Below, one piece after another: positions 12,837 to 45,999 of a stretch of DNA of 64,000 nucleotides; the stretch's first letter is position 1, and every line of letters begins with the position of its first letter. This DNA comes from Octopus sinensis (taxonomy: Eukaryota), in assembly GCF_006345805.1 (NCBI RefSeq), contig NC_043000.1, positions 86,738,001 to 86,802,000 on the forward strand. Reading direction: 5' to 3'. The notes below the pieces were generated by a model, which did not search any database, was not told where the DNA came from, and worked only from the letters and a program-made list of their open reading frames with translations. Both the position numbers and the translations under genes were made by a program.

Positions 12837-13210
12837 TTCAACCTGCTGTTTTGCTGGACTGGGTTCTAGTTTTGTATGGGACTGATAGACATCCCCAGCA
12901 AGTTCCCACCACTACTAGCACCAGCACGACTGCCGCACCAACTAGTAGTACCACCACAGCTCCTCCTTCTAACTATCCTCGTTCGGTTGCTGACAAAGCC
13001 AATCCTCGTGTTCCAGCGACTCCTAACTTTCCAGAATATAATCATAATATATTTAGGACGAACCTAAAGTCACCATATGCACGTCGTAAACCTCCACTGC
13101 ACAGGCACCACATGTGTATTTTTGAAACTCTTGCAAAACGGAACAACATATCGTCCATGCAGTATAGGCGAGCAGTAGGTAACTCTACCTCTGATGATGA
13201 CAAGTCATAA
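12837..13210 (+). CDS. furin: Alternative 3' coding exon A of a furin/kexin-like proprotein convertase (end of P domain + Thr/Ser/Pro-rich tail)
   Basis: Branch point CACTAAC (12792-12798), long pyrimidine tract and TTACAG acceptor ending at 12836. Phase-1 frame reads xQPAVLLDWVLVLYGTDRHPQQVPTTTSTSTTAAPTSSTTTAPP...DDDKS*. The W-x-L-x-x-x-G-T motif matches the terminal P-domain strand of furin/PACE4/PC5 (recalled). The exon is GC- and CpG-richer than its flanks. Exact paralogue uncertain. A possible internal donor TAG|GTAACT follows 13178. Confidence 0.85.
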
Positions 13211-13659
13211 TTAATCACACATGTGGTTTATGGGACCATAAACAGCAATTGTTTAATATTTATCCAGTTAATGTGTACTGTTTGTCAAATGAGATAAAAT
13301 TTTTATTGTTGGAAATAGAAAAGAAAGAAATGAATGGAGGTTCTTATTGGTTATAATTGCTGTCAGGGAAAAAAAAAACTGTTTCGTAGTTGAGTAAATA
13401 TATTTTTTTTTAATTGTTGACTTCCTGCCCATTAAACACACAGACACATGCACTTACATACACACACATACACACTCTTTCTCTCCCTAAATAATTCTGA
13501 GCTTACCCCCATCTTTTTTTTTCACTCATTTAGAACAAAAATATGTTTTTGTTTATAACAATTTAAGTGCTTTACATTTTAACACATTCAAATAATGTTT
13601 TTTTTTTTTATTTTTAAGAACCTTTTTATTTTGTCTAAGTTGAAAATTTATACATTTTT

Positions 13660-13665
13660 AATAAA
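13660..13665 (+). terminator. Candidate polyadenylation signal after exon A
   Basis: AATAAA about 450 nt after the stop, with U/GU-rich sequence downstream; another at 14987-14992. The hexamer is common in AT-rich DNA. Confidence 0.3.
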
Positions 13666-15766
13666 ATTTCGATGGAAATAACAAGCAACTTTCTGCTGTT
13701 TCAGTGTACTTTTCTATTTACTTGTGTGTCAACATGACCACACAGCACGCATACACATGCACACACACAAATACACACACACAACACACACACATGCATG
13801 CATGCAGTAACACATTTTTGTGACACACCTCATTTTCTTCCCCCATAATGCTGACTGACAATTACTTTTAAATTTATTTTTAATAATTCATTTTACTCTA
13901 ACAGTTCCTTTCTGTCAGCTCTTTTGGGCTTAATGTATTTGAATGCTTTAGCCAAAGTAAAGAATTCCCTTCTTTTCTTTCTACCAACAGAATTACTCAT
14001 CTTTTTATAAGAACGCATGTTTGAATTCTTGTATTACATACAAGAAAATAATTTTTGGAAGATGATGTGAATATATTGTTATTTTCTAACTATGGTAATA
14101 AGGTTTCATTACCAGAACTTTATAACAAATTTTATCTCCTTATAACCTGGGAAGAGTTCAGCAAGTATTTCATAACAATCTGATACGCCTTTGTTTGTTA
14201 TTTTTTTGTTGAAGTCTTGCAAATTAAGAAGGATTGTACCATATTTTTATGTTATACTTGTATTTATCACTGACTAAATATAATGTCAAGTCTGTGAATA
14301 TTGACAGTGTGATGTGCTATAAGCCACTTTGAGTTTTAGACTACAGTTGGTTGTATTTTTTGAAGTGTTTCAAGCTGTGAATTTAGACAAAACATCAATC
14401 AACTACATTTCTTTCCAATTTACAGTGGCACTTCAATTTTCTCAACTCTTAGTACATTGCCAGCAAAAATATTGATGGAAATGAAATTCTGTTAGGTCTT
14501 GCTATTGCAAGAGAACTCAGTTATGTTCAGTGTGCTTTTTTTTTAAAAAAAAATTATTGAAAAAAGTATGAAAGTGATATTAATCATCTTTTTGTTTGTA
14601 GGTCAAGTAGAAATTTCCATGACAGTGTTTCTGGTAAAGGCATTGACACTAGTTGTTGAGCTAGGACAAACTCAATCAAATTGCTCCAAACATATTCAAA
14701 GGTGCTCTATATAGAATTTGTAGATCATACTCAAATGATCATTCCATGTTATTTACTTTTATAACCAAAAAGTATTCATGGTGGAAAAGACAAAAAAATA
14801 ACAAAAAAAAAGAAAGAAAAAGATAACTGCCTTAAGAATGACTGTTGTTCTCTCCAGTGATGCGTGTGGCTTCTTTATGCAAATGAATTACATACAATGG
14901 TTCATAGCAATCTTCTTTGTTTTGACTTCATTTTACCCTTTGCCTGTATATCAAACTGTGTATGTATGTGTGTATGTTTGTAAGTGAATAAACATGGCTA
15001 TTTACAAACATCCAAAATACTATTTTTAACCCATTTAGTGTTGTAGAAAAAATAGTTTGTTTCTACACTTTATGCATTGTTCTAAAATTGTTGACTTCTG
15101 ACAGTTTCTTTTTTAACAATTAATTGCTCCCTATTTGTACATTGTATTTGTTTTTAAAGTTTGGATTAGAAAAGCATTTATAGTATGTGTAAACTGTTTT
15201 AATAGAAATCTTTTTTTCTTTTTTATGATGAATCCCATTTTGTTTCTTTCTATTTCAATAGGTATATTTTCAATAATTTTAAACCACTTAGTATTTAAGC
15301 TATATCACAATGAAAGTTCAGTTTTTTGTCCAGTTGCCATCATTAGTATTGTTTTAGATGTAAATGTTGATTAAAGTCAGTTGTGTGAGTTAACATATAC
15401 TAGGATTGAGGTGAATTTTATCAATTTAGATAGTTCTTCACTCATTTTATTGATAAAGGTTAGGCCAGTGATCTTCATTAGTTTATAAGTTCTCTGGTAA
15501 TGTAATCTGTTACCAATGGATCAAAGGCACTAAGGAAAACATTGAATTTATGAAATCATATCTAGTGATGCATACTACTGGAAGTAACTGAACTCAGCAC
15601 TGACATATTTTACTGTAGCGATACTCTATACTCCTGTGTTGTACTTATTCACAGATAGATATTAGAAGTGTCATGGCTTTGAAGATATTTTAGTGCTCAG
15701 GAAACCACCAAACTTTCAGATGGTAAAATAGCACACTATCTACTTAATCGTTTGTAACTCTCATTA

Positions 15767-15802
<36 letters not shown>

Positions 15803-16551
15803 ATGTATGTAGTATCGATAAACTGTTATATAGAGTTTTTACCATCTACTTTCCAGAATTTTCACTAATTTGGATAGGTTAATAAAACAAATTTTCGTTT
15901 TTTAAAGATTTCAATTATATACTACTTTCCATTCATAATATTAATTATGATTATTGGATATAATTTTAAAAATTAAGTTTCGATTAAAATTACATCTTTC
16001 ATGAAACCTAAACAGGATTACATCAAATGTTTTAAAGACATTAATCACTTCAATTCCCAAACTATTTTCAGAGTTATTTGCTACAAATAGCTAACCTGTT
16101 AAATTGTAAGAAATATATCAAATCTGATCTATTTTGAATAATTTAATGCCACCAGAGTAATTCATTTTACTGATTTCTGTGATAATAGTTGTGGATGTTG
16201 TTCAAAATGTTTCACTAAGTTGAAGTTTGTTTTATATATATATATATATATTTATGATATCTACTCAGGGTTTCTTTTTTTTTTTAGATTAATTTTCTTT
16301 TCTTTTTTTTTTGCATTTTGTTGTTTACTTTGTAAAATTTCATAAATTTAAGATATTTTGTTTCATAATCCATTACATAATGCCTCAAAATAAGATATTT
16401 TTTCAACGTCTACAGTTAATGGTTTCATTCTTGAATAATTAGCTTTCTTTACAAGAGACTTCTTTTGTTAATCAATACTTAAATGTATTGTGTTTCTAAA
16501 ATGTTGGTATTGTTAAAGTTATATTTTCTAAGTATTGTATGTATATGTATA

Positions 16552-16608
<57 letters not shown>

Positions 16609-18169
16609 CTAAATATTTGTTTTAGTTTACTTGTGTTGTCTATTTTTATACATATCATTTTTGAATATGTAAATTTTAAAAAATTGTCAGGGAAGAATTC
16701 TAAAAGGAATCTGGTAATAGTCAGTAAATGAAATACATGTCTAAATTTTCAGAACTGAGTATATTGGATTAGTTCAAAACATCATTTATAACATATTCTC
16801 TCTTTCTCTCTCTCTCACACACACATATATACACACACCAGATTCATTTTAATTATAGAGTTAAATATACTTCATAATATATTTGATAAATTTTGAAGCA
16901 TAAATTGTAAGCAAATTTTCCTTAATATAACAACAGTTATTACTACTACTACTAATAATGTAGAAAATTATTTAAATATCTAGAATTTTATTTTCCTAAA
17001 GGGAATTTTTGTAAGAAGTGGTTAAGGAAGATCCAAAATGAAATTGTGTTGTATTTATTGTAAATTTTTGCAATTCAGATGATAATTTCAATATTTACTT
17101 AGTTTTCTTGACTGAAGTGTGCCATAATAATTATACTTGAAATGTGTAATAGGTTTGTCCTTTCTTACGTTACCATAAAGAGTCAAGAACAAACCATTTA
17201 TTTTGTTACTTTTTCAAATTATCATGTTTTGTGGGCCTAATTTCTTTAACCGATATTTTGTTTCAAGTGAATTATGTCTCCTGTTGTTAACTATATCTCC
17301 TCTTGTTAATTCTCTAGATGCCCTATGGTTATTTTTTCTAATGTGATTATCTGTTTACTCCATTTTAATTGTTAGATGGTTTCTTTGTTTTCTTCATCTG
17401 CATTTGAATTAGTGTTTGTTAGAAGAAAGTTAGAAGAGAATAAGTTTACAAATGTAGTTGTGTTCATATTATAAGGATGAAATGTGATATGGCTAAACTT
17501 GAAGTAAATCTGATTTTTAGTATACAGTATTTGATACAGATTTGGTAATGGATTCTTCTTTATGGGCCTGATTTTATCATTGGTTTATTTTTCTTTGCCA
17601 TTTTGTCTTTATGTGCCACATTCTTTACAATTATGAAGTCACAAAGCATAGAATGCCTGAAGAGATTGAAGGACATGCAAATGAGAATGTGCAGAGAGAA
17701 AAAATACAAGGAGAAATAACAACAAATAAAAAAAATGAATAATACTAATTGGTAAACTAAATATGGGATAGATTGTCCAAATTCTAAATAAGTATGAAAC
17801 CTTGTGGTAAGAATAATCTTGATTTCATGTTTGCAGTTTCCTATGAATTAATAAAAAAAAATGCCTATTTTATAGATTAAAATTCAAATATACTGGATTC
17901 TGCATGTGCAACATTAAATTTGTGTTTTGTTTTGTTTGAGAGTGTGTGCATGCGACTATACATTGCATGGATGTATGCACACATGCAATATATATGAAAT
18001 GTATGCATGTACGTGGGGCATATATGTGTGTGTGTGTATGTATGTAGGTATATATGTGTGTATGTATACATATGTATGTAAGTGTGTGTATATATGTATG
18101 TATATGTGTGTGTATATATCTTTATATATACACACACATATATGCATGTTTGTGTGTACATGCCAATTT

Positions 18170-18960
18170 ACCTTATATTGCTATTTACACAGCTGTCTTT
18201 GTTTTTCTGTTGCCTTCTTCTGTTCATTTGTGCTGTACATTGCTTCAAACTGGAACAGGCCTTCTTCATAAAGACACACCAGTCTTTTCCCTCCTACACA
18301 GAAGATTCTAGATATGACAGGGATATCAAAACTCCTGTGATTGCCTTTGATACAGTCCTTGTATCACAGTTGAGCATTCTTTTCGTTTGTTTTTCCATCA
18401 AATGCCCTCTGACGTTTGCTGGTATGCCATGCAAAAGCTGTCCATCTGATTGATGTTGCCCGTCCTGCATAACATATTAAGATCTTGATGCTGAGAAGGT
18501 CTACTCCATCTAAGCTTCTAACCCTTTCGATCTAGTTGTTTCCTGTTCCATATCCTGATCCTACAACTACATAGAAGTCTTGTAAGAATGTCTCCTTTGC
18601 CTATATTGATTTTTGTAGAAGACTGGGTGTTTGGCAGTTTCTCATTCAAGAATATTAGCAACCTATTGAGGAATTGCAGTAATTATTTCCTTGTCAAGAG
18701 AAACAGTTGATGGTTCAGCTCAGTGTCATTCACAACAAATATCAAGAGAACCATTGATGAATCTGGTGTTGGCCAATGTGGATCAGTGACATGGCAAGCT
18801 TTGAAGAATTTTTCAGCAGTCATTTGGAGATATAATTCTCTTGTAACCACAGTCTTCAGCAAATGATGCACCTTAGACCAGTTTCTTAAGTGCCCATCCT
18901 GAAACCATTGACAGAGATTGAATAAAGAGCCACCAGTTACTACCTTGTTTGTTCTTCAGT
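18170..18960 (-). mobile_element. Decayed RTE (BovB-like) LINE RT fragment
   Basis: Minus-strand remnants VVTRELY, EKFFKACH, IFVVNDTELN and KLRWS fall in the order expected for an RTE RT C-terminal half; heavily degenerate. Confidence 0.45.
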
Positions 18961-20717
18961 CAAGGTCACACAGATTCATGTAAAGAGCCTGGTTAAAATA
19001 GAACTAAACACTGACACAGCTATTTTAGAAACCACATAAGTGATAGTTGTTTAACTAAGGTTATCTCTCCTTTTTGTTTTCTTTTTGGTGAGTTGAGACA
19101 TGTAGGACTGTATCTAATGATGTGACAAGTTCTTGATAAGACAGTTTGATTTCAGGGAGAGTAGGCTGTTATTTCTATCTGGTCGAGTGGCCAGATAGAG
19201 GCTCATTTACACAAGTGGTTAAATGGTATAGTGGTGAGACTGGAACAAACTAAAGCATTATAGATAGTACTGATGATCCTGACAAATCTGGATTGGCTAA
19301 GCTTTATAGCAATGTTATGTTCCAAGTTAATACGGTGTTGACTGTATCAGGTTAATGATGGTAGTATTGAAATCTAAGCATTTCCTAGTACAATTTTCTT
19401 GAGTTTGTCTCACCATTTAAAGTTTTACACCCTAACCAAAAACCATACTAAATGTGTAACAATATGTTTTGGGGATGAGAAAGAATCATGCAAGAGTAAT
19501 GTTTGGATTTTGAAAAAAAGAGAGAAAAATAATGAGAACACTGATGGATGAACATTCTGAATGAACATTCTGAAGAATCAGTATTTGTATCTCATTCCTA
19601 TCTCTGCCATTACAAGACACATGACAGTCTTAATGTCTAATTCCACCTTGCTCTAAACTACGTATTCCATGTAATGCAATTCATTGCAATAAACAGTGGA
19701 AGCACTGTCAGATTGGTAAATGTTTCTTTGATTTGCAATGTCATATTTAGACTCTACTCTAGGAAAAGTTAAGATAGATGAGCAAGAAGGTATTTATCCA
19801 TTTCCTGCCTAAATGCTATTGAAAACCAGCGATACACATCAGATTATTCTTTGTGAATGCTGTTTAGATTGCATGAAGAAAATTATGTAAAAACCTCTTT
19901 GCCAGCAGCAGTAAGCTAGGTCTTCTCTTTTGCATTCCAATGTGTCCTTTTTACTTCACAAGTATTACTGAACCAGCTTTGTTATGCTTGGTTTCCTTCT
20001 ATCATACTGCCAGACAATCCACCTGATATATTAATCAGATCTTATGTCAATGAGGGTTTCAGAGTCATTCATTATGCTCACCATTGCTAGAACCATTAGC
20101 CGTGCAAAACAAAGTAATGCATGAAAGATGGGAACCACTCTTGAATATACTGAAAATGGCAAGGTGAGTCACTCAGTAACATTATAATTTACAAATAGAT
20201 GCATTTTTGTGGTGGTCTTATACCTTTTAGGGTTTTACAAGAAATATGTTCGATAAATGTTTTTATTTTAGCATTGTATTATTGGTTGGCTCTGCAGGAA
20301 TGGTCTGTGCTCATGACCTTCACACACTCTTGAGACTGGTGAGATTAATTCCATTAGTATTCCACTTAAACAGTTGCAAGCTAAAGGCCATAGGAAAATC
20401 CTGTGCAAAAAGCAAAATTAAGAAGTTTCAGTGTTCCAGGAAGAAAGTACTTGATGCAATGATTATTACAGGACTTGGGAGTGGATGCAGTATGAAGGAC
20501 AAAATGAGGGGAGACAAGTTGGAAATGCTTGAATGGATATAACATGAGAACCAACCAGTTCTAAGAAACAGAAGTCATTAGTGTACCAGGGAAAAAAACA
20601 AAGAGGACACAGTATGGTCAAGTGTCTTTGTGAGTGACTTTATAGCAATCAGTCAGGTTGGGTTTTGTTTGGATAAAACTGCAATTTACAGACATATACC
20701 ATACATGACATATATTA

Positions 20718-20890
20718 ATAATCATTTTAATGTCCAGTTTTCTATACTTGCATGGGTTGGACAGACTTTATTGAGGCAGATTTTCTATAGCTGGATGCCT
20801 TTCCTGTTGCCAACCCTCACCAGTTTCCAAGCAAGGTAATATTTTCCCATAGCCAGATATGTTTTTTGCAGAATATTGGAAATGAATGAC
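20718..20890 (-). mobile_element. SINE/LINE 3' tail family (GGATGCCCTTCC...GCCAACC), ending in (GAT)n
   Basis: The same motif recurs near 780-950, 11225-11345, 21690-21750, 23020-23100, 23955-24030, 42900-43070, 50520-50710 and 63640-63800. Confidence 0.7.
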
Positions 20891-20968
20891 ACTGTTTGTA
20901 TCACAGTGACACCCATTTACAACTACTATATAATGTCAAGGCACCAACATACACACTCATATGTACAT

Positions 20969-21010
<42 letters not shown>

Positions 21011-21017
21011 TTAGAGA

Positions 21018-21165
21018 GAGCTTCTTTCAGTTTCCATCTACAAAATACACTCACAAGACTTTGTTAGTCAGGAGCTATAGTAGAAGACACTTACACAAGG
21101 TGTTATATCATAAGACTGAGCCCAAAGCCATGTGGTTGGGAAGCATACTTCTTAATCACACAATC
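21018..21165 (-). mobile_element. SINE 5' half, reverse orientation (49509 family)
   Basis: GCTTCTTTCAGTTTCCATCTAC...TATAGTAGAAGACACTT...CCATGTGGTTGGGAAGC. Confidence 0.8.
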
Positions 21166-21176
21166 ACACCTTCATC

Positions 21177-21217
<41 letters not shown>

Positions 21218-23555
21218 CCAGTGCTCCAGCATGGCCACAGTCAAATGACTGAAACAAGTAAAATAAAAAAAGAATATATATGGTATATACAGAGATAATG
21301 TTAAATAGTTAGTAAGTTAGTAGTAATCTTTCTATGTATAAGACAAACTGAAATACAAACACATCCTTGATGGTATTGAACAACAAACCTTTTATGAAAC
21401 TATTCTCTCAGTAGGTTGAGTAATGTGAAAAAAAGTTTCAGTATGCAATTGTAATACTAATCAAGTGCTAATACCCTAAAATTTTACCATACATAATCAA
21501 ATAATCCACAATGCTTGTAACAGAAAATTATGGAACACTTTAATAACTTTATGTAATGAAACAAAGAAACGTGTGTGTGTCAGATTGTCATCAATTACCA
21601 TCTGCTCTCCATACTGACATAAGCGGGATTGTTCAAGATCTGACAAATCACAAAGCTGCATGAAGCTCCAATGTGTATCTTAGCATGATTTCTGTGGCTA
21701 GATGCCCTTCCTAATACCAACCACTTTACAGTGTGTACTGGGTGTTTCTTTTTTCATGGTACCATCATTAGTGAGCTTATCTCACAGTGTGCAAAACTGA
21801 TGGAACTAGAGGAGCCCCTGTAACTGAAGGATAATAGGAGAGAATGTGTGATGATTTTAGGCAAAGTAATGCAAGATAAGATATAAGGAGAGGAACAGTT
21901 AATTATGAGAGGCTGGTAGCAGAGAGAGTAATAGAATAGATATTTTGGGAAGGTGTGTGGAAAACACAAGAGAAAGAAAGAAATTACTCAGTAGTTAGTG
22001 ATAGAGGAAAAGAGGAGTAGACTGTAAAGTGAAGGGAATCCAAGGGTATTCCACATTATATAGACAAGTATGGACAGATGATGTGAGGAGAAAGAAACAT
22101 GAAAAATGAGTGTGGTAAGGATCCAGATAAAGTTATTGAATAAAAAAGGTGAGGGGTTGAGAGGTAGGCCAAAGGGAGATAAGAGAATATTGAGGTAGCA
22201 GAGTGGTTGTGGCAGAGGACAATGAAAGAAAGAGGAGAGATAGAAAAAGTGTGATAGATGGCAATGAGTAAGTGAGCATCCCAGGTGGTAAGGTAAGAGA
22301 TATGAATGATAGGGTAATGCTTGAAGTGAGTCAGGAGATAGATTTAAGAACAGATAGTTATGAGGATGGACCAATACAGTCACTCACACATGATGGGGAT
22401 GGTATGTGAAGCAGCCATACATAGTCTGTGCACTTCAAAAGTAGTAGAGAGATAAGAGATGAAGAGATTTGAGTGATCAACAAGATGAGGGGTGCATCAA
22501 ATATAAACCTCACAGAATGCAAATGTATATATATATATATATATATAACACACAAACACTTGCATACAGAGATCACAGCCTCTATCATTATCATCTTTTC
22601 AATGCACATATTGTCACAAGTAGTCAGATCTCCTGCAGCACTGTGTATCACCAATCAATACACTCTTTTGTGATTTCCTCTGTGAGGTAGCATCTTCAAG
22701 TCAGTCTTCTTTCTTATACACTACATCCGATCCTCTTATATCCAGGTTTTCTCTCAGTTCATTTGTACTCTGTCTTTCATACTCACTAACATTAGACATC
22801 CATTGGAGCATGCTTGCTTCATCACTTTCTCTCCTTGACTAAATAAATTCACACACATGCACCTGTATATCTATGAATGCATATATGTGTATGTGTACAT
22901 ATTTATACACACACACACACAGATAGACGGATATGCATTTATATATGAGTGGGTGAGTGTATGCATAGTTCGTTGATATCCAATGGGTCCAAGGACAGCA
23001 TTGTGATTAAAGATCTGCTTTGGCATGTTTTCTATGACTGGATGCCCTTCCTAATACCCACCACAGTGGGTGCTTTTCCTGTGGTACTGGCACTAGTGAT
23101 GTTGCTGTGTAACTCACAAGATAAAAATCCCATTCAACTGAATGTTGATGCAGAAGTGGGAGGCAGATATATGTAAGGTGATGAAAGATTAAAGTATAAA
23201 CATGGGATTGGAACAGGTCTCTTGGTGTATATAAGATATGTGGCTGTTTGTATACAAGTGTGGATGGGAGTAGATAGTGTGGAGTTAAAATGCGAGATGA
23301 AAAAGGTAGTAAAAAGGTATTAGGGTGGGCCCTAGGGTTAGAAAAAGAAGTGAAAGTATGAATGGGTGCCACACAATAGAACTGAACCTAGAACCATATG
23401 GGTGGGAAGCAAACGTTTTACCACATACCTATGCCTCTGTGTGTGCATCTATATATATATATATATAATGATATAGATGCATATGTTTTATATGTGCATA
23501 AATGTGTGTGTATACATATATATATAATACACACACACATACATATCTGATTATA

Positions 23556-23631
<76 letters not shown>

Positions 23632-25329
23632 TATAACATATGTATATGTACATACTTACATATGCATATGGGAAACAAAATACAAATACATGGAATATGA
23701 ACTGTTTTCTGCGAACAATGAAGGAAATGGATGGAAAACAAAACGTACAGCATAAAGAACGACCCTTTATCAGTTGTTGGCTGTTTTTCTAATCCGTATT
23801 TTGAGCATTTCATGACTGTATGTGTATAAGCCCTTAAAAAAATGTTTCAGCCCGAAGGCTGCGACCATGCTGGTGCACCACCACTATTTATGTTTGTGCA
23901 TGTATGTATATACATATATATATGTATACATGCATATTTATGTGTGTATCGTCACACTTTAACATACAGCTTCTCTGCTGGCATGGTTTCTATGGCTGGA
24001 TGCCCTTCTTAATGCCAACCTCTTTACAGTATACACATATGTATACATGCATGCATGCATGTATGTATGTATGTATGTATGTATAATGGAATGAGATGTA
24101 GTTTACACGAACGGAGACCTTGTCATTATGGACATACAATGCAGATAACAGTACTAATGGAAGAGAAAGTCTGTGGAAGTGGAAGACTTTGAAAGACATG
24201 GGTTGAAATGGTGAAAACTGATCTCGAGATACTGATGTTCATGAGGGAGTTGTTTAGTAGCTGCAACACTGTATGCTGGAGCACACTCTCTCAAGCTGGG
24301 CTGGAAGAGTGTTAACAAGAGGAGCATTGATAGCTGGGTTACTTTTGCTGTTCTTCCCTTGTCTCCTTTTCACTATCTTCTCTCCTCTCCTCTAAGTCTT
24401 TGCCTGTGATATTTTCACTGCTCTCATTCACTGCCTCCAACCACCACTACATTGTTATCTCACACTCCTCACCATTGGAGACACTTTTTCTGCTGTGACA
24501 TTCCGATCTTCCCCACTTCTTTTATGGTACTCATACTTTCAGCCACTCCCTTTCTACTCTTGCTATACTCACTCACTGCTCTTCCACCCTACTTCTCATT
24601 TTCTATGAGCATCCTCTTTGCACAACTTTTACACTCCTCCACACATTATCTTTCCATATTTGGCCCACCCCTATGATCTCCACATTCTTTGCTTCTTCGG
24701 TGACTCCCTTCAGATCCTTGTCACATCCCTCTATCTCTTTCTTTCATGCTCGCTTTTGCTAAAAGCATTCCTTTCATACTCACCTTTGTAGTGTAGGTTG
24801 GCTGGAAACCCTTACACAACAAAACTTATCACTCTGTCCCTTTCTTTCTCACTAACCACTAACACATATCCTTTCCCTATTTCCTGTTCCTTTAATTCTT
24901 TCTCTCCCAATAGTATCAGCTTTGCAATACTCCCCACTATCACCCTCTCACTACTATCAATATGTTCCTGCCTTCATATTTTATTTTCTCATCCTTGAAT
25001 CTTAAAGTGTGAGAGATACATTGCTGCCTTCTCTCTCCATTATATACAGGAGGGATTAGCTGGAAAGTGTTGGCAAGGTATCAAGGTGCCCTCTTAAGGT
25101 ACATAAAGTTGATTACACAAGACAATACAGACAGAGTACCTTCAGCAGTGGGTAGGCAAATTTGCAAGGGTGTAAATGAGATGAAGGTCAGAGATACTGA
25201 AGGATGGATATAATAAGTGATGAGCAAAGGTGGTAAGGGGGCCGTTTATGGTAGATATTAGAGAGTGTTGAGAATTATGAATGTATGTATAATTATATAT
25301 ACACATATATAGATGTATGTATATCTATG

Positions 25330-25366
<37 letters not shown>

Positions 25367-25508
25367 ATATAGTTGTATATAATATATATATATATGTATG
25401 TATATATATGTATATATATACATATTATATGTATGTATATATATGTATATATATACATATTATATGTATGTATATATATGTATATATATACATATTATAT
25501 GTATGTAT

Positions 25509-25548
<40 letters not shown>

Positions 25549-26162
25549 GTGTATATATATGTGTATATATATGTATGTGTATATATATGTGTATATATAT
25601 GTATGTATATATATATGTATATATATGTATATATATATGTGTATATATATATGTGTATATATATGTATATATATGTATATATATATGTATATACATGTAT
25701 ATGTGTATATATGTATATACATGTATATGTGTATATATGTATATACATGTATATGTGTATATATGTATATATATCTATGTGTATATATGTATATATATCT
25801 ATGTATATACATGTATATATATATATATATGTATATCTATATATATATATATGTATGTATCTTTGTGTATATGTGCGTATATGTATTTACATTTATATAT
25901 GTATGTATGTATATATATATATATTATATATTATGTTTGTGTATATGTGCGTGTATATGTATTTACATTTATATATAATATATATATTATGTATGTTTGT
26001 GTATATGTGCGTGTATATGTATTTACATTTATATATATATGTATATATATATATGATGAGCAAAGGTGGTAAGGGGGCCGTTTATGGTAGATATTTAGAG
26101 GTTGAGAATTATGAATGTATGTATAATTTATATACACATATATAGAGGTATGTATATCTATG

Positions 26163-26193
<31 letters not shown>

Positions 26194-26265
26194 ATATACG
26201 TATATATATATATATGTATATATATATTATGTATATATCTGTATATATATATATATTATATATGT

Positions 26266-26313
<48 letters not shown>

Positions 26314-26314
26314 G

Positions 26315-26411
<97 letters not shown>

Positions 26412-28219: not shown

Positions 28220-28319
28220 NNNNNNNNNNNNNNNNNNNNNNNNNNNNNNNNNNNNNNNNNNNNNNNNNNNNNNNNNNNNNNNNNNNNNNNNNNNNNNNNN
28301 NNNNNNNNNNNNNNNNNNN
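28220..28319. other. Assembly gap (100 N)
   Basis: Run of exactly 100 N, the usual placeholder for a gap of unknown size. Confidence 0.99.
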
Positions 28320-28968: not shown

Positions 28969-28972
28969 CATA

Positions 28973-33499: not shown

Positions 33500-34900
33500 T
33501 CTTGTAAGACCACTGTCCAGCATGACCCTCAAACTTCCTCACCTTCCAAACTGCAGCTTATCCTTTTGATTCCTGCCAAGAGTGTCTCTGCCAATTTTGC
33601 TGAACCTTTTTGTCCTCCTCTTCTTAACAATGGTAACTCTGTAAGTAGTACCTCAATGGGCAGATCCTCCACCTTAGCTGCCCACTTCGCATCCAGTTCT
33701 ACACAATTTACTGAGTCAGTTCTCCCATCAAACCCTCCATCTTTCACTCCAATAGGTGGGGAACCTATTGCGTGAAAGATACCAAGCTACTTAAAACAAA
33801 CAAGGTCATCAATTCAGGCAATGTCATCTTCATTACACTTAAAGAATTCACCCCCAGAACTTGCCCCTATACTCATCAATTTTTTAAAATTTATCACTCT
33901 CTATAGGGACCTACATTTGGATGTACACCTCAGTGCATCCCCATTCCAAAGAAAAGTGAACTCTTCTAACCCAGTCAACTATCTTTCTACTTCTTTCAAC
34001 TCTGACATTACCAAGGTAATGGAGACAGCCATTAGGAATGACATTGTCCATTACCTTGAATATCTCTCTCCCCTGTGACCCTAATATGGTTTCCACTGGT
34101 GACCTATTCTCATATGTCACCAGTCTGCTGTTGCTTTAGAGAAGTTCAGTGAAAGCAATGTTGTTGCTCTCGACATCAGTAAAGCTGTTGATCATGTCTG
34201 ACATCCATATCTCCTACCAAAACTTCTCACCTATGAGCTCTACTCATCTCTCATCTCTTGGATCAGTAGTTTTCTATCTCATTGTGGCATGTGTTAACAG
34301 AGCTCTACCTACCCAACTCTCAGTTAACTTTGGTGTTTATCAAAGTTCAGTTCTCCCCCCTCACTCTCTTCCTTCTATATATCAATGACCTACTTGCTTT
34401 CGCATTCAACAACACCCATTTTTGTGCATATGACACAACCCTTCACTTTCCCCTAATTTTCCCAACCATGCATTCTCTACACACAACATATGCCAGCCCT
34501 GCATTGTTTCTATTAACAGCGTCCATGAGAGCATCTCCCAGTGGAGCCATGCCAACCTTTGTCTCTTTTAATTGCAAAAACACTCGATCACTACTCATAT
34601 CAAGAAATCCTCACCACACCATTCTCTCACCAAATATGAGTGACAGTCAGCTGGACCCCTCATAGTCACTCCAAATGCTGGGCCCACTATTACCAAAGAT
34701 CTCTCCTTACTCAAGCATTTTCTTAGCATATCTAGGACTGCATCCGAAAGAATGTCTCTTCTCTTTTGGGCCAGAAGATACTTCAGCTCCCTACAGTAGC
34801 TAACACTTTGCAAGGCTCAAGTGAGGCTCACAATGGAGCATGACTCTCACATCTGGGCTGGTGCTGCTGTTACACACATTGACACTATCAGTCTCACCAG
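33500..34900 (+). mobile_element. Decayed CR1/L2-group non-LTR retrotransposon RT
   Basis: In order: PELAPIL, SNPVNY, KVMETAI, VVALDISKAVDHV, GVYQSSVL, TLFLLYINDL, FCAYDTTL (YADD remnant), FNCKNT, ARRYFS, KAQVRLTMEHDSHIWAGA. Stops and frameshifts throughout. Confidence 0.9.
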
Positions 34901-35477
34901 TCTTGGAGGGCATGTAAGGGTCATAAGCTTTGTCTTTCCCCCCTGACTCAGCAAATAAAGAAATACAAAGAAACTAGCGGTGATCTATATTAGCAAAAGA
35001 TTTTAATGGTAAAAGGTAGCTTTGTAAGTTTCAATGTCAGTTGGAGAAGCATAATGGTGTTTTGGACCAAGCCATGTGAGAGAGAGAGAGAGAGAGACAG
35101 AGAGTGTTTCTTTTGTTCTTAGTACATTAGAGTGTTGAAATAGTAAAGATTTCATTTCCACTAACACATGGAAGAGAAAGTGAAGCTGGAGGTGAAGAAA
35201 GAATAATATGAAGGAAAGGGGAGGGTTATTGGTCTTTGTAATTTTTGCAGCGTGTGTCAGGTGAAGGTCAGTGATCTGTGAACAATTTTTTTCTTATTTT
35301 AATATACACATTTATGTCTACACACACATATATATATATATATACATATGAATATTTAAATTTAACTCAGTAGCTCTCATATTTTCATGCATACTAAAAA
35401 CTGAAACTATTAGCTCACATGTTGTTTATACACACACATATCAATTTATTTGTTTGCATATATGTATGAGTGTATGT

Positions 35478-35538
<61 letters not shown>

Positions 35539-35729
35539 GCAGCATTGATGAATATTCAAGAAGTTTACTTTGCAGTCATTGTCTTGGGTTTAACCCAACC
35601 CTTATGGCTGAAACTGGATAGGTGGAAATTGTGTAGAAACTCAGTGCTTGGATTGTACTTGTAAAAGCCAACATTATCACAAACCTCATCACATGGATTC
35701 TGCTTTAGGACTATAACAAAGGTATACAC

Positions 35730-35787
<58 letters not shown>

Positions 35788-36980
35788 AGTTTGATCCTTT
35801 AGCTCAAATTAAAGTATGTTACACTTAATAAATCAGCTTCATAATTATAGTGTCAGTATTATCAGTTAAGTAGATATTTATATCATATTTGTATTTCCTG
35901 TAAAATTTCTATTTTGCTAGAGTTCTGATGGGGCAAGATACTTTTCAAACACATGTGCTTCCGGTAACTATCAGAGCTTTTACAAGGACAATAAATATAA
36001 TATTAATAAAGAAAATTCTAACAAGAAAACATATCTTCTTTTACTTATATTCAAGTATATCATAATTAACTATAAAAAACAATTTAAACAATTTTCATCT
36101 TGTAGTAGTTCCAAAGTTTTTAACATTCTCAACAGCGTACTCCATTTTATCATTCAAACCATAATATAGGCTTCCTATCTATTCTATAAATGTATTTTTA
36201 ATTTTTAAAACTGAACTTTATTATTATTATATTATTATTACTATTACATGAAATTCACCTTTTTATCTTATAAATGCGTATGTTTATTTTTTGAAATTTC
36301 ATTATAAAGTCTCTTGACAATGTAATATTTTTTTTTTTTTACATATTATTGTCAATGACCTTAATGTCTAGCCTACCATTATTGGATTGCAAGGTTGGAG
36401 GTGGGCAGCAAAGGTATCCAAAAATCAAGTTATCAAAGTGTTCCAATAATGTGCAATAAAATAATTGTGTGTGTGTGTGAGCATGTGTGTGTGTGAGCAT
36501 GTGTGTGTGTGAGCATGTGTGAGCGTGTGTGTGTGTACTATATATAGAATAGACCATGTGCTCAGACTCTGAAGATTGCTTGGAGACACAAGGTATGTTA
36601 TAAAAACCTGCCTAGACACACGTTTCCAATGCAAGAAACTTTCAGTAGCTCATATCTTTATACTGTGTACATTAAATATCTATCTATATATATATATACA
36701 CACACACACCAGCAATTTCATCTAATTTCTTTGTGTCTAAGCTAAATATTCTCATTAGATAAATTCCAACATTAGATTGCTACTTCTGTTTATGGCTGGC
36801 AGGGTGAAGTAGTTATTGGCTTCAAACAAAAACAAAAAAAAATTTTTAATATTCTTAGATAAAAATATATTTTGATTGAGTTTGTACTTTCTGTCCAAAT
36901 GTTTACATTGCAATAATGTCAGGAAAAGTTCTGACAACCAAGAATGTAACCAGTATGATTTGTTTATTATTATTATTATT

Positions 36981-37180
36981 CAGAATCATTAGGGCATTGG
37001 ATAAAATGCTCGGTGGCATTTCTTTCAGCACTTTACATTCTAAGTTCAAATCCCACCAAGGTCAACTTTGCCTTTCATCCTTTTGGGGGTCGATAAAATA
37101 AAGTACCAGTGAAGTATTGGGATCAATGTAATTGACAAGCCCCAACCCTACTAAAATTGCTGGCCTTGTGCCAAAATCTG
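36981..37180 (+). mobile_element. tRNA-derived SINE (GCCTTTCATCC...GATAAAATAAAGTACC family)
   Basis: B-box-like AGTTCAAATCCC; colinear with 55916-56126. Confidence 0.8.
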
Positions 37181-38116
37181 TAATTGTAATTATTAGTTTA
37201 AAAGTTATGGATTTTCATTTGAGTCTTCCTTCAAGTTTAGTTGACTTTTCGATGATACAAAAACTTCAATATTTGTATGCAGTGATATCTAATTTAGTGA
37301 ATTTTTTATATACTGAATTTAACAAAAACAAGTAACTGGTGCTTATTTAAAATATTCTTGAAATGCAATACCACTTTCACAGAACTAAAATTTCAGCAAC
37401 ATTCAAAAATCATTTATTGATCAAGACAAATAAATTATTGAAACTTTAAATCATTTGTTTAGCTTAAGGCAGTTCAAAAGACTTTTTTAACATTTCAACC
37501 CAACAATGATAGAAATATCACTTGAAATTATTGTAATTGGAATAACTCACATTATATTAATCAACTCCATTTCCTTAACTTAATTTTTTGAGTATTTGAA
37601 ATCAAACATGTAGTTTGATGATCATTCTCTTTACATTGTAATTGTACAAGTATCAGTGATTGTATTTCTAATGGCAGTCTTCTAACATCTTATGAAACAT
37701 TAATTATACAACTATTATTCATGTCACCAGTCATAGATTTTATTTTGAAAACAAATTACTGTTGTTGCAATGTTTATTTCTTCAGAATTAAATTTTGGTC
37801 TTAGAATTTTTATTATATTATACAAACTATGTTTGATCATTTTATTCTTCAGGTATAAACTAATTTTGTACTTCAACTTGACTGTATATCAATTATACTG
37901 AATTTAGAAATTATCATCAGTTGTGGAAACTATTATTATGTAGTTATCTCATCTGATTTTCCTTCCAAAATAAAAATGAAAAAAAAATCTGATAGAACTG
38001 ATTTTATTGAAAGTGCCTCACCATGGGTTGGATTTGAATGGTCTACCTCTTCAAAATAGTTAATCTTTTTTTTATATGTAATATATATATATATATAATA
38101 TACATATGTATAAATG

Positions 38117-38171
<55 letters not shown>

Positions 38172-41100
38172 GCTTTGTTAAACATTGAAGACCAAAGAAT
38201 CTTAAACTATTATTAATATAGTAAAGTTTGAAATCAATTTAATGTGAAATGTGATGCTAATCTTTGCATATTGCCAAGTGTTCAATAAAAAGAAAAAAAA
38301 AGCTGCTATTCTTTCTCTATCAATTAGGGTTGGTTTGGCTCATTGTAGTGTTAACATGAGCTTTTACACATGATTTCTAAACTAACCATTTCGTTTGTAT
38401 TGTTAACTTGGTGAAAATAACAGCAGGATGTATTTAAATTTTGGACCAAAATAGGTTTTAAAATTGCTTATTCCTGTTTGTACATATATATGATGTCATG
38501 AACAAGGCAATAATAAAATAGATTACTGTACAAATTTCTACAGTCCTTGTATGTTCTGAAACTATTTTTGTCAAACTGCTGTTACCTAGTTTACAAATAT
38601 TCATAGAATTTGTGATTATTACTGCCAGCTGTATTTTACAATTTTCAAATCTATAAAACTGAAAATTCTCTTAGGAATTTTACATGTTTTTAATGTTTGT
38701 TGATTAGTCCATCTAAACAATACCAATACAGATATCAAAAACAAAAAAACAATTAAAAAAACAGTTGTTAATTTGTTAATGTTGGTGAGGATCTAATTAT
38801 AATTAACCATTTAGTTTATGATGGTTCTGATCCTCTTACCACTGAAACTGATGAAAATATTTACATAAAGTGAACTGCTTTTTTGAGGTTGAAAGAAGAG
38901 AAGAAAATCTGAACAATATTGACTCTTGAGTGCACATACCTTTTTTTTTTTTATAAGTATGTGTACTCTTTCTCTTTCTCTCTCCCTCCTTCTATCACAA
39001 AGGTAGCAATGTTACTATGGATAGTATGTTTTAGTTCAATCTGTGTTGTATACAATTGTTCATAATTGAATCATTGTACGCCTGCTTCCCATTGTGCCTT
39101 GTATGGGCCATCTGAAGTATGCTCAAGGAAAATAAACAAGGTGTCATCTTTCTCTTTACTTCTCATTTATTTTTTATGCTTGCATAATCTTTAACTTCTT
39201 TTTTAAAATGATCCACTATTTTTTCTTTGTCAATGTTTGTTGTTTCTCTTTACTTTCCTTTTATTCTTTGTATGCTTAATGTTATTGAGCTGTAATATCT
39301 TAGCTTCAATACGTATCGGAATTTTAATGTTTTAACAGATTTTATGCTGAAACATTAATATTGTTATAATTTTGGGTTTGTTGAAAAATGATAACACTCG
39401 GAGTGCCTTCAATAAACTATAAAATAATGGTAATTTGCTCTTTAAATTAATTAGCCAACTTCTGTAACAAATCATCTGAGTAATTTCATATATTTCCTTC
39501 TGTAACAAAATATAAATGGGAGATAAAGCAATGTTTCATTGTTTTTATATATCTGATTAGTAAATAAGTTCTGGGTTGATTAGTTCAATTGAAAGTCTTG
39601 AAGGTGGTCCCGCAGCATGGCCACAGTTTAATGACTGAAACAAGTAAAAGATAAAAGACAATAGTATAATTATCATAATAATATATACTAATTATAAGTA
39701 AGACATAATTATCAACCATACTATCCCAAAAATTTGAGATAAGCTGTTTATTAAATAATTTAGTATGTCTGCATATTAAAGATGGTTGTTATTATTTGTG
39801 TTTCTGTTCCTGAATATGATGAAAATCTATTTAAATAATTATACAACTGTGACTAGCTTCTTCAATTTTGAAAGAACTTCAGTGGTACAGTTTAAATTTA
39901 ATTGTTCATTGTTAATTTTCAATTATGCTTCTTTTTGCTTGATTAGATATGACAGAGTTACTGTTGAGCCAAGTATAATAATCTGCAGTGATTCTACATG
40001 TCTTTAATTTACTGCATCTCAGTGACCCTTGATTGAATAGTGCAAAGACTTGTAATTACCTTAGCTTAAGAATAAAACTGTTACAAAATGAAGTTTCCTT
40101 TCATTTATGTTTATCGCTAGAATTATTGATGTTAATAAGAATCATTGTGTATTGATTGATTGATTGATTATAAATATATGAAATGAAATAAATGCAAGTT
40201 TCAAAGCTAGGTTAAAGTCATTGCCTAACACAAGATTCAAATTTGCAAAGCAAAATTTGCTGGGAATGGCATCAGTTTATTATTGATAAAATTACCATTA
40301 GTACCTTTTCTACCCTGGAGGACAATTTAAATACGTAATGTTAAGTGTACTGGCCAGAGCCACAACAAAGTAACTACTGTGTGAGATATGAGCAAATACT
40401 GCCCTGTGACTTTGTTGTCAAATACATTATTGAATTTGTCTTTACAAAGATTTCTCTGGTAATTAGAACTTACCATATGAGAGAACATTTTCAATTAATG
40501 AAAGAGCATTTTCATTGAATGTAAAACTTAAGTAGAAGAAATAATCATTGACTTTTAATACAGATTGATATTAATTATAGTAGGTTTTGGCATCCATTTA
40601 ACTTTCTAATAAGATCAGTTTGATTGTATAAATTGAAGTAACAACAGAATTGAAAATGCTTAAAAGGTTGGCACATATTTAACAACTAAACTATATTTAG
40701 TTGTGTTAACAGATAAGATACAGATAAAGTTTTACTGAGTTAAGATTCATAAAATTAATAGGAGTTATTCATTTACATATCCATTTTTTGTCTATACCCA
40801 TTTTATGTTATTAAACAACCATAATAACTTTAGATATGGTTTTAGTGTCATTTTCACTTAAATATGGTTCCTATGACAATTTCAGAAACTGAACGGTTAA
40901 AAGCGGAATATTTTACCAAAGCCAGCACACAACTTTGCACAGAATTTGATTTATGTGCCCTTTGGTAAATAGATAATAATCTGGCCACTGTTAACTCATT
41001 GGCTTGTAGTTTTCATATAGCTCATTAAGTTTGTAGTAAATTTAAATTGCTTATGTTTATTTCTTTCTTCATTTACTGTGTTTGTATGTTATATAGTTTG

Positions 41101-44100
41101 ATTAGTTTTCTCCCTGAACATCTATTTCTTTAGAAGAGCTTTGAGAGCATAAATCTTAAAGTTCATCTGTAGAAGCCATGCCTTGGCTTAAATTTTGTGG
41201 ATTAAACCAGGTGTTTGGCAAAAATAAAAATTGATCTGATTCTTGTTGAATTGTATGGACTCCAGTTCTCTATGGAGAAAAATAACCAACTACTATTCCT
41301 TGACAGACTGATGTTGGGTATCATGATTATGTGTGTGTTGAAAATCAATAGCTGCCAGACTTTTGCCTAAATTATGAGTTTTATCATCCCTATTGTGTTT
41401 GTATAAGAAGTTATTAGATGCTTGCAACATTCAGTAATGGCCATCTGCATTCAATATAATAGCTTATAAACTAGAATTCTGACACCTAAATAATCTATTC
41501 CTGGAGAATTGATATCTTCTGTATGATAGTTGCATTTAGTTTTATAGAAAGACAAAACATAAATAATTTGTAAACAATATATTGGAACAGTATTAAAAAG
41601 TGACATTACACGCCACAAATCTTGTACTGGTTGAAAGTTGTTCCAGAAGATAGACAAATTTAAAGAATTACATTTTCAAAAGGTCTTTCAAAAAAGTAAA
41701 TAAGATGGCATGAAGATCAGAACCTCACAAAACTTTGATCATTGAAGAAGAATTAAGTAATAAATGGCAGAGAATAAATTGTGTGAAAATGAAAACCTCA
41801 TGCTCCACAAGTCACATACACAAGTTAATTGAAACATGGGTTTAGAAAATTTGGTAGGCACACACGCACACACATGGTATCCAGCTGGAGAAATCAAACC
41901 AAAACTGAGACAGTAGAGTAAGATGTGCTCTACCAGCATGCAAAGTAGATTTAAAATGATGATATATATATATATATATATCATTAAGAAGCTAATCAAC
42001 ATTTTCAGCATATATTTGAATAAAATACATTTTACTCAATTTGACACACTTCTGTCCCTTGTGAGAGCAGCATAGACAAAACATTGAAATACTAAGTAAC
42101 TTTGCTAAGGATTTTGTGTGTGTACATGAGGAAATAAAGGATTTAACAAGGATCAACAAATTAAGCAGTGGAGGTATAGTGTACAGGAAGACAGCTGATA
42201 TAAAGATAATAGTGTGCATAATTTTTTTCTGCTTGACTATTTTACCCTTTTTAAAAAAAATATGGATATTTATTCAACTTGATCTGGACCCAAAAGATTT
42301 TTCCTGAGTTTAGGAAACTTGACCGAAGTAATCATTTCCTAATATAGCTGATGAAGAAGAATTCCGGTAGGAAGGAAATTGTCTCCAAATCAAATGTATC
42401 ATTCATAAAAACATTTCCAAAAGATAAATTCAGATCAAAAACATGGGAATCTGTTCCCAATCTTCAATTATGGCTTTAATTGCTTATATATTCTACTTAT
42501 TTAGAACTTTTAACAGTTTAAACATTGATTTATTAGTTAAATACCACATACAAGAATATTAATTTTCAGCCAACTTTCAACAAGCTTTCCAAAGGAGGTT
42601 AACAAAATCGTTACCAAACAAACTCATTACCAAAGTTTTACATATTTTTTTCATTTAAATGATGTTTTTCTTCCAATTTTTTAGATTTTTATTTTATACT
42701 AGTTATATTGTATCTTTATCTTTCTTTACAGCTCCACACCATTTACTCCCACCTACCCTGTTATAATTTGGAGTAGGCATATATCTTCTCTACAACAACA
42801 ATTTTGTGCCTATCCTTTCTGTCTTTAATCTTTCAATCTCAAGCATAAAGCCTTTTCCTTCTCTGTTCTTTTAGTCTTACAAGTTACATGGCAACCTCAC
42901 TAATTATGATGCCATGAAAAAAGTACCTTATACACTCTATACAGAGGCTGGTATTAAGAAGGGCATCTAGCTGCAGAAACCATGCCAAAACTGAGACATT
43001 GCAACAAGATGTCATACTTAAACTCTTTGAATACTGTTTAACTGTTCTCAGATGTAAAATGAAGATGGTGACTAGTTACATTGCATAAAGTGTGCCTTTC
43101 TCTAGAGAAAACATGTCCTTATAAATACTATTATAAAGTAACAATAGTACAAATTTCACAATCATTTTCTTGAAAACACAAACATTCAAAGCACATATTA
43201 TTATAGCCATCCAAGTATGGTGCAATGCTTTCTTGATTTTCCCTTAAATAACATTTACATAGGGCTAATTTTATTCTCTTACCAATGAGTGTAGTACATA
43301 ATTATTAACATTTGCATACATGAAAATATAGTTGTACCTGTCAAATACCTTAAAATTAAGTGAATATATTTTTCAGTTTGACATATATATTAACCTAATT
43401 TTAAAATTAAGGTTTTTCAGAGGGGGGAATATTTTTTTTCTAGTAGTGTATGAGGTATCAGAAACATCTTGATGTTGATAGAGTGAGCTGTTGTAGTTTT
43501 ACATTCCTGTCTTAGAATATGAAATTTAAGATTTCTAGGCAAGAACCACAATACTATTTGTATTTATAATGTAAGCAAAGTGAACTGGTTACAACCAAGA
43601 ATTAAAATGAAGCAAACTTTCATCACAGTTAACTTACCTCTGCACCACAGTGTTTATCTATAAAATTAAACTTGGATCTAATGGAAGCTTGATGCTTGAT
43701 CTCTGTAATTTGACAATGAGGATTCAGTCATTCGATCAACTGAATTAGCTCCTCCTAAATTAATAAGTGACAGAGTATTCTACATACACCTTTAACATAA
43801 TTCTCAGGCAGAATCAACATGACACCATGTATTGTTGTATGGGTGTACTTTTAAATTACTGATACAATCCATCCAACAGGTGTCTTTACAGTTTCTATCA
43901 ACCCAATTTTGCTTACAAGGTATAAGTCAACCCAATCCTATAAAAAAAATGACATTTTCCCAAGATGCTACTATATAATGGGATCAAGCCTGTGGCCACA
44001 GTTGTGAAGTAAAACTTTTAACCAATCATTCACACTCCAACTATGAGAGCTTAGTATTGGAATGTAATAAACAGCCATGCAGTATCTTTGTTGCTTAAAA

Positions 44101-45761
44101 CAGTAAGTTTTGCCTTCCCATGGCACATTTTACAACTATGTGGACAGGATCGACATTGCCCAGGGCACAGCATAACAGTCATTACAGGATAGGATTCAGA
44201 TAACCCTTTGGCATCTAGATGACTGTTCTAATAGCTTGTTTTTTTTATCATAACTTTATAGTTGTTATGTCTTAGCATGAAGGTAAGAATATCCTTTAAA
44301 AAAAATGCTTTGAATCATTTATTTGTGCAGCTGGCTGCAGTTACATAGCATACTTAAAGATAAAAAATATATATTCAGTGTATTCTCCATGGCTCTCTTA
44401 TCAATTAGAGACTTGACACTAAACATTAGTTTGTAAATGAAGCATTTGTTAAACCACTAAGGCATATAAGGTTCAAATAAATTCTTTATTTAATTTTGCC
44501 CAAATTACCCACCAGTCAAATTATATTTAATATTAATAGTTTAAAGTTTTAACATATGTTTAAAATTTAGTCAAGTAATTCTTCAAAACTTAATCAAGTA
44601 GTTCCTTAAAAGTGGAAATTCTTATATCCTACTTAACCTGGCTATATTGTTAGAGTGCCATATTACTGCATTATTCACCTTGAGAGATTCTCTCATATAG
44701 GCATAAAGTGCTTAGAGGTACAAACATATTGTTAGCAGACGATGATGTGGCGGAACATGTTAGCAGATATGGGTGATCACATGAATTCAGCATATCAGCA
44801 TTTCTTCAGTTGCTGGCATCCACTCACCACATGTCAGGCAAAAGGAAAGGAATATTTTTAATATATTGAAGAACAAGAGAAATAACTTGTTTATAAAACC
44901 CACATGCCTTCTACACTTGCAAAATTGCTAATTAAATCAATTTTAAATGTTTGCTTTTCTGCAAAAGGAACTTAAATACTGCTGTCATTAAATATTTTGG
45001 ATCTATCAGCATTATTTATTACATTTCATACAGATTGTTGCATTTTCAAGTACAGTATAACAAATCATATCTTATTTTCACATATAAAGAATTAGAAGTA
45101 AAGATTAAAAATTACAGCTCTTATACCTTCTTGTTCAGTATATTTATTTTTAAAAACAGTTTTGTTTTAAGTTATTTCAGCAAGAGCCAAGGTTTCCTTT
45201 ACCAACAATGAAATAATTAAATAAGATTGAGAGCAATATTCTTTGAAATAGTTAAATATAAGTTATGTACCTTTCTTAAGAATACATCTTAATACATTCT
45301 TCAGCTACCCAGCTAGCTTATGACTTCCTAACTCTTAGACCAATGGTTTTACCCCCCCCACACACACACTTTTTTTTGTAGAGCTCCTTTTTTAAGTTGT
45401 TATGCCTAACACCTACCTAGATGGCAAGTCAGGTATCATGACAAAACTAATTTAACATGGGGGTTAATTTATAAATTTTACTCAAAAAAATGGATTGTTG
45501 AGAATCTCTGCCTTAGACCAATACTTCATATTCCCGCAAATGTTAGCTATAATATTTCTTAATTAGCATACTAATTAAATACATCAGAACTGTTTAATTG
45601 TTGTCTCTCTTTGATTTATAAACAGAAATATGATTGACTTACTAGTTATGTTTTCACAAATTGTTACAAACTGAACTTCTAAGAGCATAAATGTAATTCT
45701 CTGGTTCTAGTATGATCTTTATAATTCTATCCACTGTAAATTATTTGTATTTAACTGTAAA

Positions 45762-45784
45762 CTTTTCTTACTCTTTTACAGCAG
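45762..45784 (+). promoter_or_regulatory. 3' splice site of exon B with tandem CAGCAG (NAGNAG) acceptors
   Basis: CTTTTCTTACTCTTTTA-CAG-CAG; both AGs (ending 45781 and 45784) keep phase 1. Confidence 0.8.
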
Positions 45785-45999
45785 AATTACGAGAATGGGT
45801 TTTGGTCATTCTTGGCACAAAGGAACATCCTCGACATCGTAATGTTACTCCAGAAACATCACGCATGAATCAGCAATTTCAGTCTGTATATACTTGTGCT
45901 GGTGAATCTCCTAGCAGTAGGGTCTGCATAGGTTTGTGGATATTCACTTATATTATAGTTTGTACTAGATTTTCCACATTTTACATTCCACTTCTCTGA
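45782..45999 (+). CDS. furin: Alternative 3' coding exon B of a furin/kexin-like proprotein convertase (end of P domain + hydrophobic C-terminus)
   Basis: Pyrimidine tract CTTTTCTTACTCTTTTACAG ends at 45781. Phase-1 frame reads xELREWVLVILGTKEHPRHRNVTPETSRMNQQFQSVYTCAGESPSSRVCIGLWIFTYIIVCTRFSTFYIPLL*. The start closely resembles the PACE4/PC5-type KLKEWSLILYGTAEHP strand (recalled). A weaker donor TG|GTGAAT follows 45901. Confidence 0.82.

Follow-up and report, generated by a model that had tools for sequence, protein, structure and literature searches.

Findings

The 64,000-nucleotide stretch of the Octopus sinensis genome analysed here (hereafter the window; G000:C4:86738001-86802000, that is, contig NC_043000.1 of assembly GCF_006345805.1, forward strand) contains two exons, exon A starting at position 12837 and exon B starting at position 45782, that are both part of the octopus furin1 gene (kpc-1/Dfur1 type) and that each open with a copy of the strand closing the P domain of furin-like convertases. 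We put at roughly 0.88 the probability of the following reading: a shared P-domain exon is spliced either to exon A, giving a 677-residue protein that lacks an anchor and is likely soluble, or to exon B and a cysteine-rich/transmembrane (Cys-rich/TM) tail, giving a predicted membrane-bound protein of 760 residues, each exon supplying the last strand of the domain. The joint between the P exon and exon A is seen in contigs and the joint to exon B in protein records, while hydropathy profiles show which form has a hydrophobic anchor. RefSeq already lists the two main octopus isoforms, and the literature describes alternative C-termini for Dfur1 and bli-4; the gain is therefore comparative.

One gene with a shared P-domain exon

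The shared P-domain exon, the genome's best P-domain match, ends 32.5 kb upstream of the window with the residues ENGASA and the phase-1 donor GCA T|GTAAGT, and it is 100% identical to the furin-like protease kpc-1 proteins of Octopus sinensis and O. vulgaris. A genome search recovered one set of pro-domain, catalytic and P-domain exons (C4 86594965-86705454), all upstream of exon A. It found no catalytic exon between A and B, with the limit that weak matches can escape its strict first look, in agreement with a preliminary description of the window made from the sequence alone. In the 760-, 677- and 625-residue forms, Pfam detects the S8 pro-domain, Peptidase_S8 and the P domain in this order, each above its cut-off, and the octopus protein aligns with furin (1p8j) over residues 108-570 with E 8e-209, the exon A strand included. 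By homology it is a kexin/furin proprotein convertase, expected to cleave after basic residues. In a quick tree that kept 41 of 47 candidate rows (six were dropped for short alignment) and whose outgroups are unnamed, the octopus gene groups with insect Fur1 and nematode relatives in a 28-row clade with an SH-like approximate likelihood-ratio test (SH-aLRT) value of 85; database names agree with the furin1 (Dfur1/kpc-1 type) placement.

The coding part of exon A (12837..13210, + strand) is directly preceded by a polypyrimidine tract and AG, a phase-1 acceptor. Its peptide, QPAVLLDWVLVLYGTDRHP, carries the closing strand, a Thr/Pro/Ser-rich stretch and the motif HMCIFETLAK...QY, and comprises 123 full codons before the stop at 13208-13210. 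Exon B (45782..45931, + strand), 150 nucleotides long and of phase 1 at both ends, encodes the second copy of the strand, a linker and two cysteines; its peptide is ELREWVLVILGTKEHP, with the frame stop at 45997-45999. The sequence CAGCAG at 45779-45784 precedes it after a polypyrimidine tract, the acceptor again being of phase 1. Joined to the shared donor, the acceptor at 12837 gives Phe and that at 45782 gives Ser. The second acceptor of the CAGCAG pair (45785..45786, + strand) was ruled out as productive, since the shared donor leaves T and T+AA is the stop TAA; 45782 alone of the pair is productive.

Mapping of octopod proteins to the region resolved four forms, of 677, 760, 625 and 608 residues. 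Exon A is terminal in the 677-residue form, with a 100% match to XP_029635351.1 and XP_052823300.1. Exon B, with its donor at 45931/45932, is internal in the 760-residue form (XP_029635350.1, XP_052823299.1; 766 residues in Argonauta), where it is followed by the Cys-rich/TM exon (G000:C4:86809588-86809968, window-equivalent 71588-71968) and a last exon (G000:C4:86810828-86810919, window-equivalent 72828-72919), both past the end of the window. GAB1606790.1 is a further octopod record joining exon B to the Cys-rich/TM exon, which brings such octopod records to three. In two Octopus species, RefSeq model X1 coincides exactly with the B plus Cys-rich/TM form and X2 with the A form, and the Logan-derived proteins of the Sepia furin cluster comprise seven that join the P exon to B and one that joins it to A and ends there. 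Exon B is thus a combined internal and terminal exon through which the Cys-rich/TM tail is reached. Gene models indicate that it is probably also read through or spliced to a tiny stop exon. Read-through of its donor (45932..45999, + strand) adds 22 mostly hydrophobic residues before the stop and gives the 625-residue form (CAI9721294.1), and a mini exon at G000:C4:86802431-86802447 (window-equivalent 64431) ends the 608-residue model (XP_036358123.1) with VIHKT and a stop after B. The hydropathy peak over 19 residues reaches 2.54 in the tail of the 760-residue form and 1.62 in the read-through end of exon B; in the exon A tail it is 0.75, and a hydrophobic anchor is absent.

Exon A is present in 20 runs, none of them recorded as RNA. 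Four of these, each with a different organism code, were examined as contigs and are taken to be RNA by guess. In all four runs a contig starts at 12837 with a loose end that equals the last 30 nucleotides of the shared P exon. In three of the four this overhang measures exactly 30 letters, the length that a branch of the contig graph at that donor would be expected to leave. All four contigs cross the exon A stop without a joint and continue to 13362-13604, marking the start of a 3' untranslated region (13211..13604, + strand) with patchy cover up to 15700. No splicing from A to B was seen in the contigs of the four runs, although contigs drop rare forms. Searches with the exon A or exon B region returned one and two cluster representatives, respectively, and no new cephalopod forms.

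Several proposals of the preliminary description can be set against these results. Both exons do lie on the + strand with phase-1 acceptors, and one upstream donor serves both, as contigs in four of four runs indicate for A and protein records for B. That both end in stops is correct for A, whereas the stop of B is met only by reading through the donor at 45931/45932, and the idea that both are terminal fails, B being internal in the 760-residue form and leading to the Cys-rich/TM tail. That tail had been suggested as a possible further option outside the window; it does lie just beyond the window, but it continues B and is not a separate choice. Of the joints predicted for the shared donor, the one to 12837 is found in contigs and the one to 45782 in protein records, while 45785 gives a stop.

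Homology of the two closing strands

Eighty-two closing strands taken from other convertases served to build a position profile, the id range being chosen to omit named molluscs; some rows may be mollusc, and none is identical to the octopus strands. Among 235,990 peptide windows from 260 kb around the window, this profile ranks the exon A and exon B sites first and second, with 28.5 and 28.4 bits; the next best site scores 7.3 bits, and the top score over 20 locally shuffled copies of the window is 11.4. At the DNA level, the starts of the two exons aligned in register agree at 30 of 51 bases, compared with 10-16 of 51 at 12 other offsets. Exons A and B are real homologous copies, with a resemblance beyond chance, as had been supposed from the sequence. 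A scan of the flanking locus for more exons of the WxLxxxGT type had also been proposed; a third copy of the strand was not found in the 260 kb scanned with the profile, and a third strand exon was rejected on that basis. A Pfam scan of the two exon peptides by themselves matched no family.

The role of the strand in the folded domain is indicated by comparison with furin, in which the P domain covers residues 436-576 according to passages of a review (PMC12649860). The exon A strand LLDWVLVLYGT aligns with furin LTKFTLVLYGT, which ends at chain residue 467 of 471 in 1p8j, and the Pfam P-domain match spans the splice point (joint 553/554) into either exon, covering residues 480-562 or 480-565. 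Both observations bear out the earlier suggestion that the strand is exchanged along with the tail. Six tallied records contain the P exon and lack a strand; all end soon past the donor, and none carries a Cys-rich tail. Since the strandless records all end past the donor and the P-domain match crosses the joint, any working tail would have to bring the last strand, and the strand was likely duplicated and kept in both exons because the shared exon stops short of it.

These elements combine into one mechanism. The shared exon stops before the last strand of the P domain, and each splice choice supplies its own copy. Choice of A yields a 677-residue enzyme without a membrane anchor, likely soluble or secreted; choice of B, followed by the Cys-rich and transmembrane tail, yields an enzyme of 760 residues for which membrane binding is predicted. 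The likely purpose is to deliver one catalytic domain to more than one compartment. The requirement of the strand for folding, the location of each form and a regulated choice are points that we infer.

Distribution across animals

Fifteen of the 19 cephalopod proteins examined reach a closing strand (the other four are fragments or are cut at the donor), and among these 15, 12 carry B only, three carry A only and none carries A and B in tandem. Across 28 other mollusc groups, in a tally made up mostly of gene models, tandem A+B proteins are present in 22, B-only proteins in 17, A-only proteins in four and no strand in two; among Logan-derived oyster-like proteins, four of six are tandem. Tandem forms also occur in the nemertean Lineus, in the annelid Owenia and in seven of eight insect groups, these groups having been picked partly for showing two strands. 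In Drosophila subpulchrella Fur1, 379 residues separate the two strands of model X1, and X2 contains the second only, before the Cys-rich tail. Judging from these records, the exon pair is not special to cephalopods, and outside cephalopods its use is not exclusive. The mutual exclusivity originally proposed for the two exons accordingly agrees with the cephalopod data examined (no tandem protein among 15, no branch in four of four runs) and breaks down elsewhere (tandem proteins in 22 of 28 mollusc groups).

The end of exon A differs between lineages as well. The motif H-[MT]-C-[IV]-[FY]-E-T-L-A-K...Q-Y is common to cephalopods, gastropods and bivalves. The exit from exon A comes just past this HMC-ETLAK motif in other molluscs, whereas cephalopods continue to a stop, and the terminal, anchor-less exon A may be cephalopod-specific, as far as the protein records indicate. 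In forms that read through exon A, the resulting end is hydrophobic in Gigantopelta (1.71) and not in Mytilus (0.27). Five records, from Octopus, Patella, Drosophila, Anopheles and Culicoides, read on past C-[IL]-G-[LW] into a hydrophobic end. An amphipathic-helix scan of the exon A tail gave three windows above 0.5, none of them within the conserved motif. The conserved motif with its single Cys, in the last part of exon A (positions 13100-13180 of the window), gave no Pfam match and no usable Atlas match.

Comparison of the strands across phyla gave 41.6 versus 41.0 for mollusc A with insect A and 34.3 versus 34.4 for B with B, with no pairing. Such scores lend no support to one shared origin of the mollusc and insect duplications and are uninformative on A/A and B/B orthology. 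We nevertheless offer one tentative scenario, possible though not the more probable course of events, in which the closing-strand exon was duplicated once before the split of molluscs and insects and was kept as a tail switch; coleoids would then have lost the exit from exon A, which would make the choice a strict either/or, and a soluble furin1 would be sorted by the HMC-ETLAK motif, for instance to secretory granules.

Alternative interpretations

Three considerations weigh against the either/or choice between a soluble A form and an anchored B form. The joint from the P exon to B is documented by gene models and Logan-derived proteins; the transcript runs are RNA by guess and their contigs drop rare forms, so that low-level splicing from A to B through 13179 could be taking place; and the exon A tail might still bind membranes or hold a sorting signal. 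One rival reading holds that exon A is an optional internal cassette in the octopus too, the form ending in A being merely the commonest and transcripts that run from P through A and B to the Cys-rich/TM tail existing at a low level. A donor-like site, AG|GTAACT (13179..13184, + strand), lies near the end of exon A, in frame and of phase 1, and could link A to B in frame, much as in the tandem proteins of 22 of the 28 other mollusc groups and four of the six Logan-derived oyster-like proteins. No use of the site at 13178/9 was seen, however: contigs from all four runs are unbroken there and have no loose end, and no tandem protein exists among the 15 from cephalopods. The site also falls about 4-5 codons upstream of the position at which other molluscs leave exon A, where cephalopods read on to the stop. 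We regard the optional cassette as unlikely in the octopus.

The arrangement favoured by the preliminary description, in which A and B are both terminal and exclude each other while the Cys-rich/TM set forms an independent third choice, accounts for the stops in both frames, for the existence of a read-through model of B (CAI9721294.1) and for the fact that A and B are never together in the cephalopod proteins examined. It conflicts with the splicing of B into the Cys-rich/TM exon in three octopod records and seven Logan-derived proteins; moreover, no third closing strand precedes the Cys-rich exon, so the tail is reached through B. On the sequence records, the B plus Cys-rich/TM proteins refute it as the main form, and we consider it very improbable overall. 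A further alternative is a pair of tandem paralogous convertase genes, the second with its catalytic set hidden in an assembly gap. There is a gap of 100 N between them, and a genome search with a strict first look can miss weak matches. The same P exon, however, stands before A and before B in octopod and Sepia-cluster proteins, and the search recovered a single catalytic exon set on C4; the different catalytic exons that would have betrayed paralogues were not found, tandem paralogues were rejected on the upstream sequence common to both isoforms, and we give the idea almost no credence. The choice between a 677-residue A form and a 760-residue B form fits the evidence best.

Other features of the locus

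The assembly gap of 100 N (28220..28319, no strand) lies inside AT-rich simple repeats and is not needed to explain either exon. Downstream of exon A, one contig in run X3 (depth 22.5) matches positions 15191-15700 of the window with many differences, and may represent a repeat or diverged untranslated region. Between the exons, at 33776-34816, short frames resemble remains of long interspersed nuclear elements by eye; two were tested and gave no Pfam match. Elsewhere in the genome, a second convertase gene (L003, G000:C3:36668344-36668568) has a P-domain frame that likewise ends before any closing strand, which suggests that the intron position is old. Long, intronless convertase-like matches on G000:C8703, C12468 and C12597, several of them with internal stops, are possibly retrocopies or pseudogenes. 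The downstream neighbours of furin1 include an RRM exon (L038, 86920147-86921076) and a multi-C2H2 zinc-finger exon (L040-L041, G000:C4:86949766-86952393), presumably CTCF-like.

Implications and comparison with known systems

The remaining interest of the locus lies in how old the duplication may be and in the change of exon A, in cephalopods, to a terminal exon without an anchor. It offers a clear example of an alternative exon having to rebuild part of a folded domain, each tail arriving with its own last strand. If the duplication is common to molluscs and insects, the isoforms of Dfur1 would reflect a very old switch and not an oddity of flies, and an anchor-less cephalopod furin1 could act on proteins within granules or in the extracellular space. 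Annotators should be wary of models with A and B in tandem and of forms truncated at the P donor, both of which call for checks. A literature search by title and start of abstract, with older subscription papers on Aplysia and Lymnaea furin outside its scope, found no publication describing these isoforms in cephalopods or other molluscs.

The closest known system is Drosophila Fur1, which appears to fall in the same protostome furin1 group in the quick tree (SH-aLRT 85, outgroups unnamed, database names agreeing). Alternative splicing of Dfur1 into dfurin1, dfurin1-X and dfurin1-CRR was reportedly described by Roebroek in 1993 and De Bie in 1995, who may already mention the repeated strand; in line with the insect records, we take X to be the A+B form and CRR the B plus Cys-rich form. 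As in Drosophila Fur1, where the P exon joins the first strand and a low-complexity stretch or the second strand and a Cys-rich/TM tail, the octopus gene has one P-domain donor and two downstream exons that each bring a closing strand, the second leading to the Cys-rich/TM tail or, in a gene model, to a hydrophobic read-through end. The octopus differs in that no X-type form was seen (no A+B protein among 15 from cephalopods, no branch in the contigs of four of four runs, which drop rare forms). Insect Fur1 mostly uses its first exon as an internal cassette, with both strands in one protein, whereas cephalopod A is terminal and anchor-less, and the insect and mollusc tails after the strand have no evident similarity by eye, without formal alignment. 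Gastropod, bivalve, nemertean and annelid furin1/kpc-1 models have the same A-type and B-type exons and strands; unlike the octopus, they splice out of A from a donor within it or at its end, yielding A+B or A plus Cys-rich proteins.

More distant parallels concern the principle of alternative tails. The mammalian isoforms PC5-A and PC5-B diverge past the P domain and are not known to swap a strand, and they belong to the PCSK5/6 group, unlike octopus furin1. Both are variants of a single convertase that differ at the C-terminus and are sorted to distinct compartments, according to PMC2121096. C. elegans bli-4 resembles octopus furin1 in being one convertase gene whose isoforms are set by 3' exons, and passages of PMC10538796 describe isoforms that differ in these exons, with or without Cys-rich and transmembrane domains, and isoform-specific mutants that complement each other, so that the tails are not interchangeable; the same passages name bli-4 separately from kpc-1, as a distinct gene. 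The furin1 group itself is defined, with Octopus included, in passages of a metazoan convertase phylogeny (10.1101/802215), in which neither 'splic' nor 'isoform' occurs. The octopus arrangement is best described as the mollusc counterpart of the Dfur1 arrangement.

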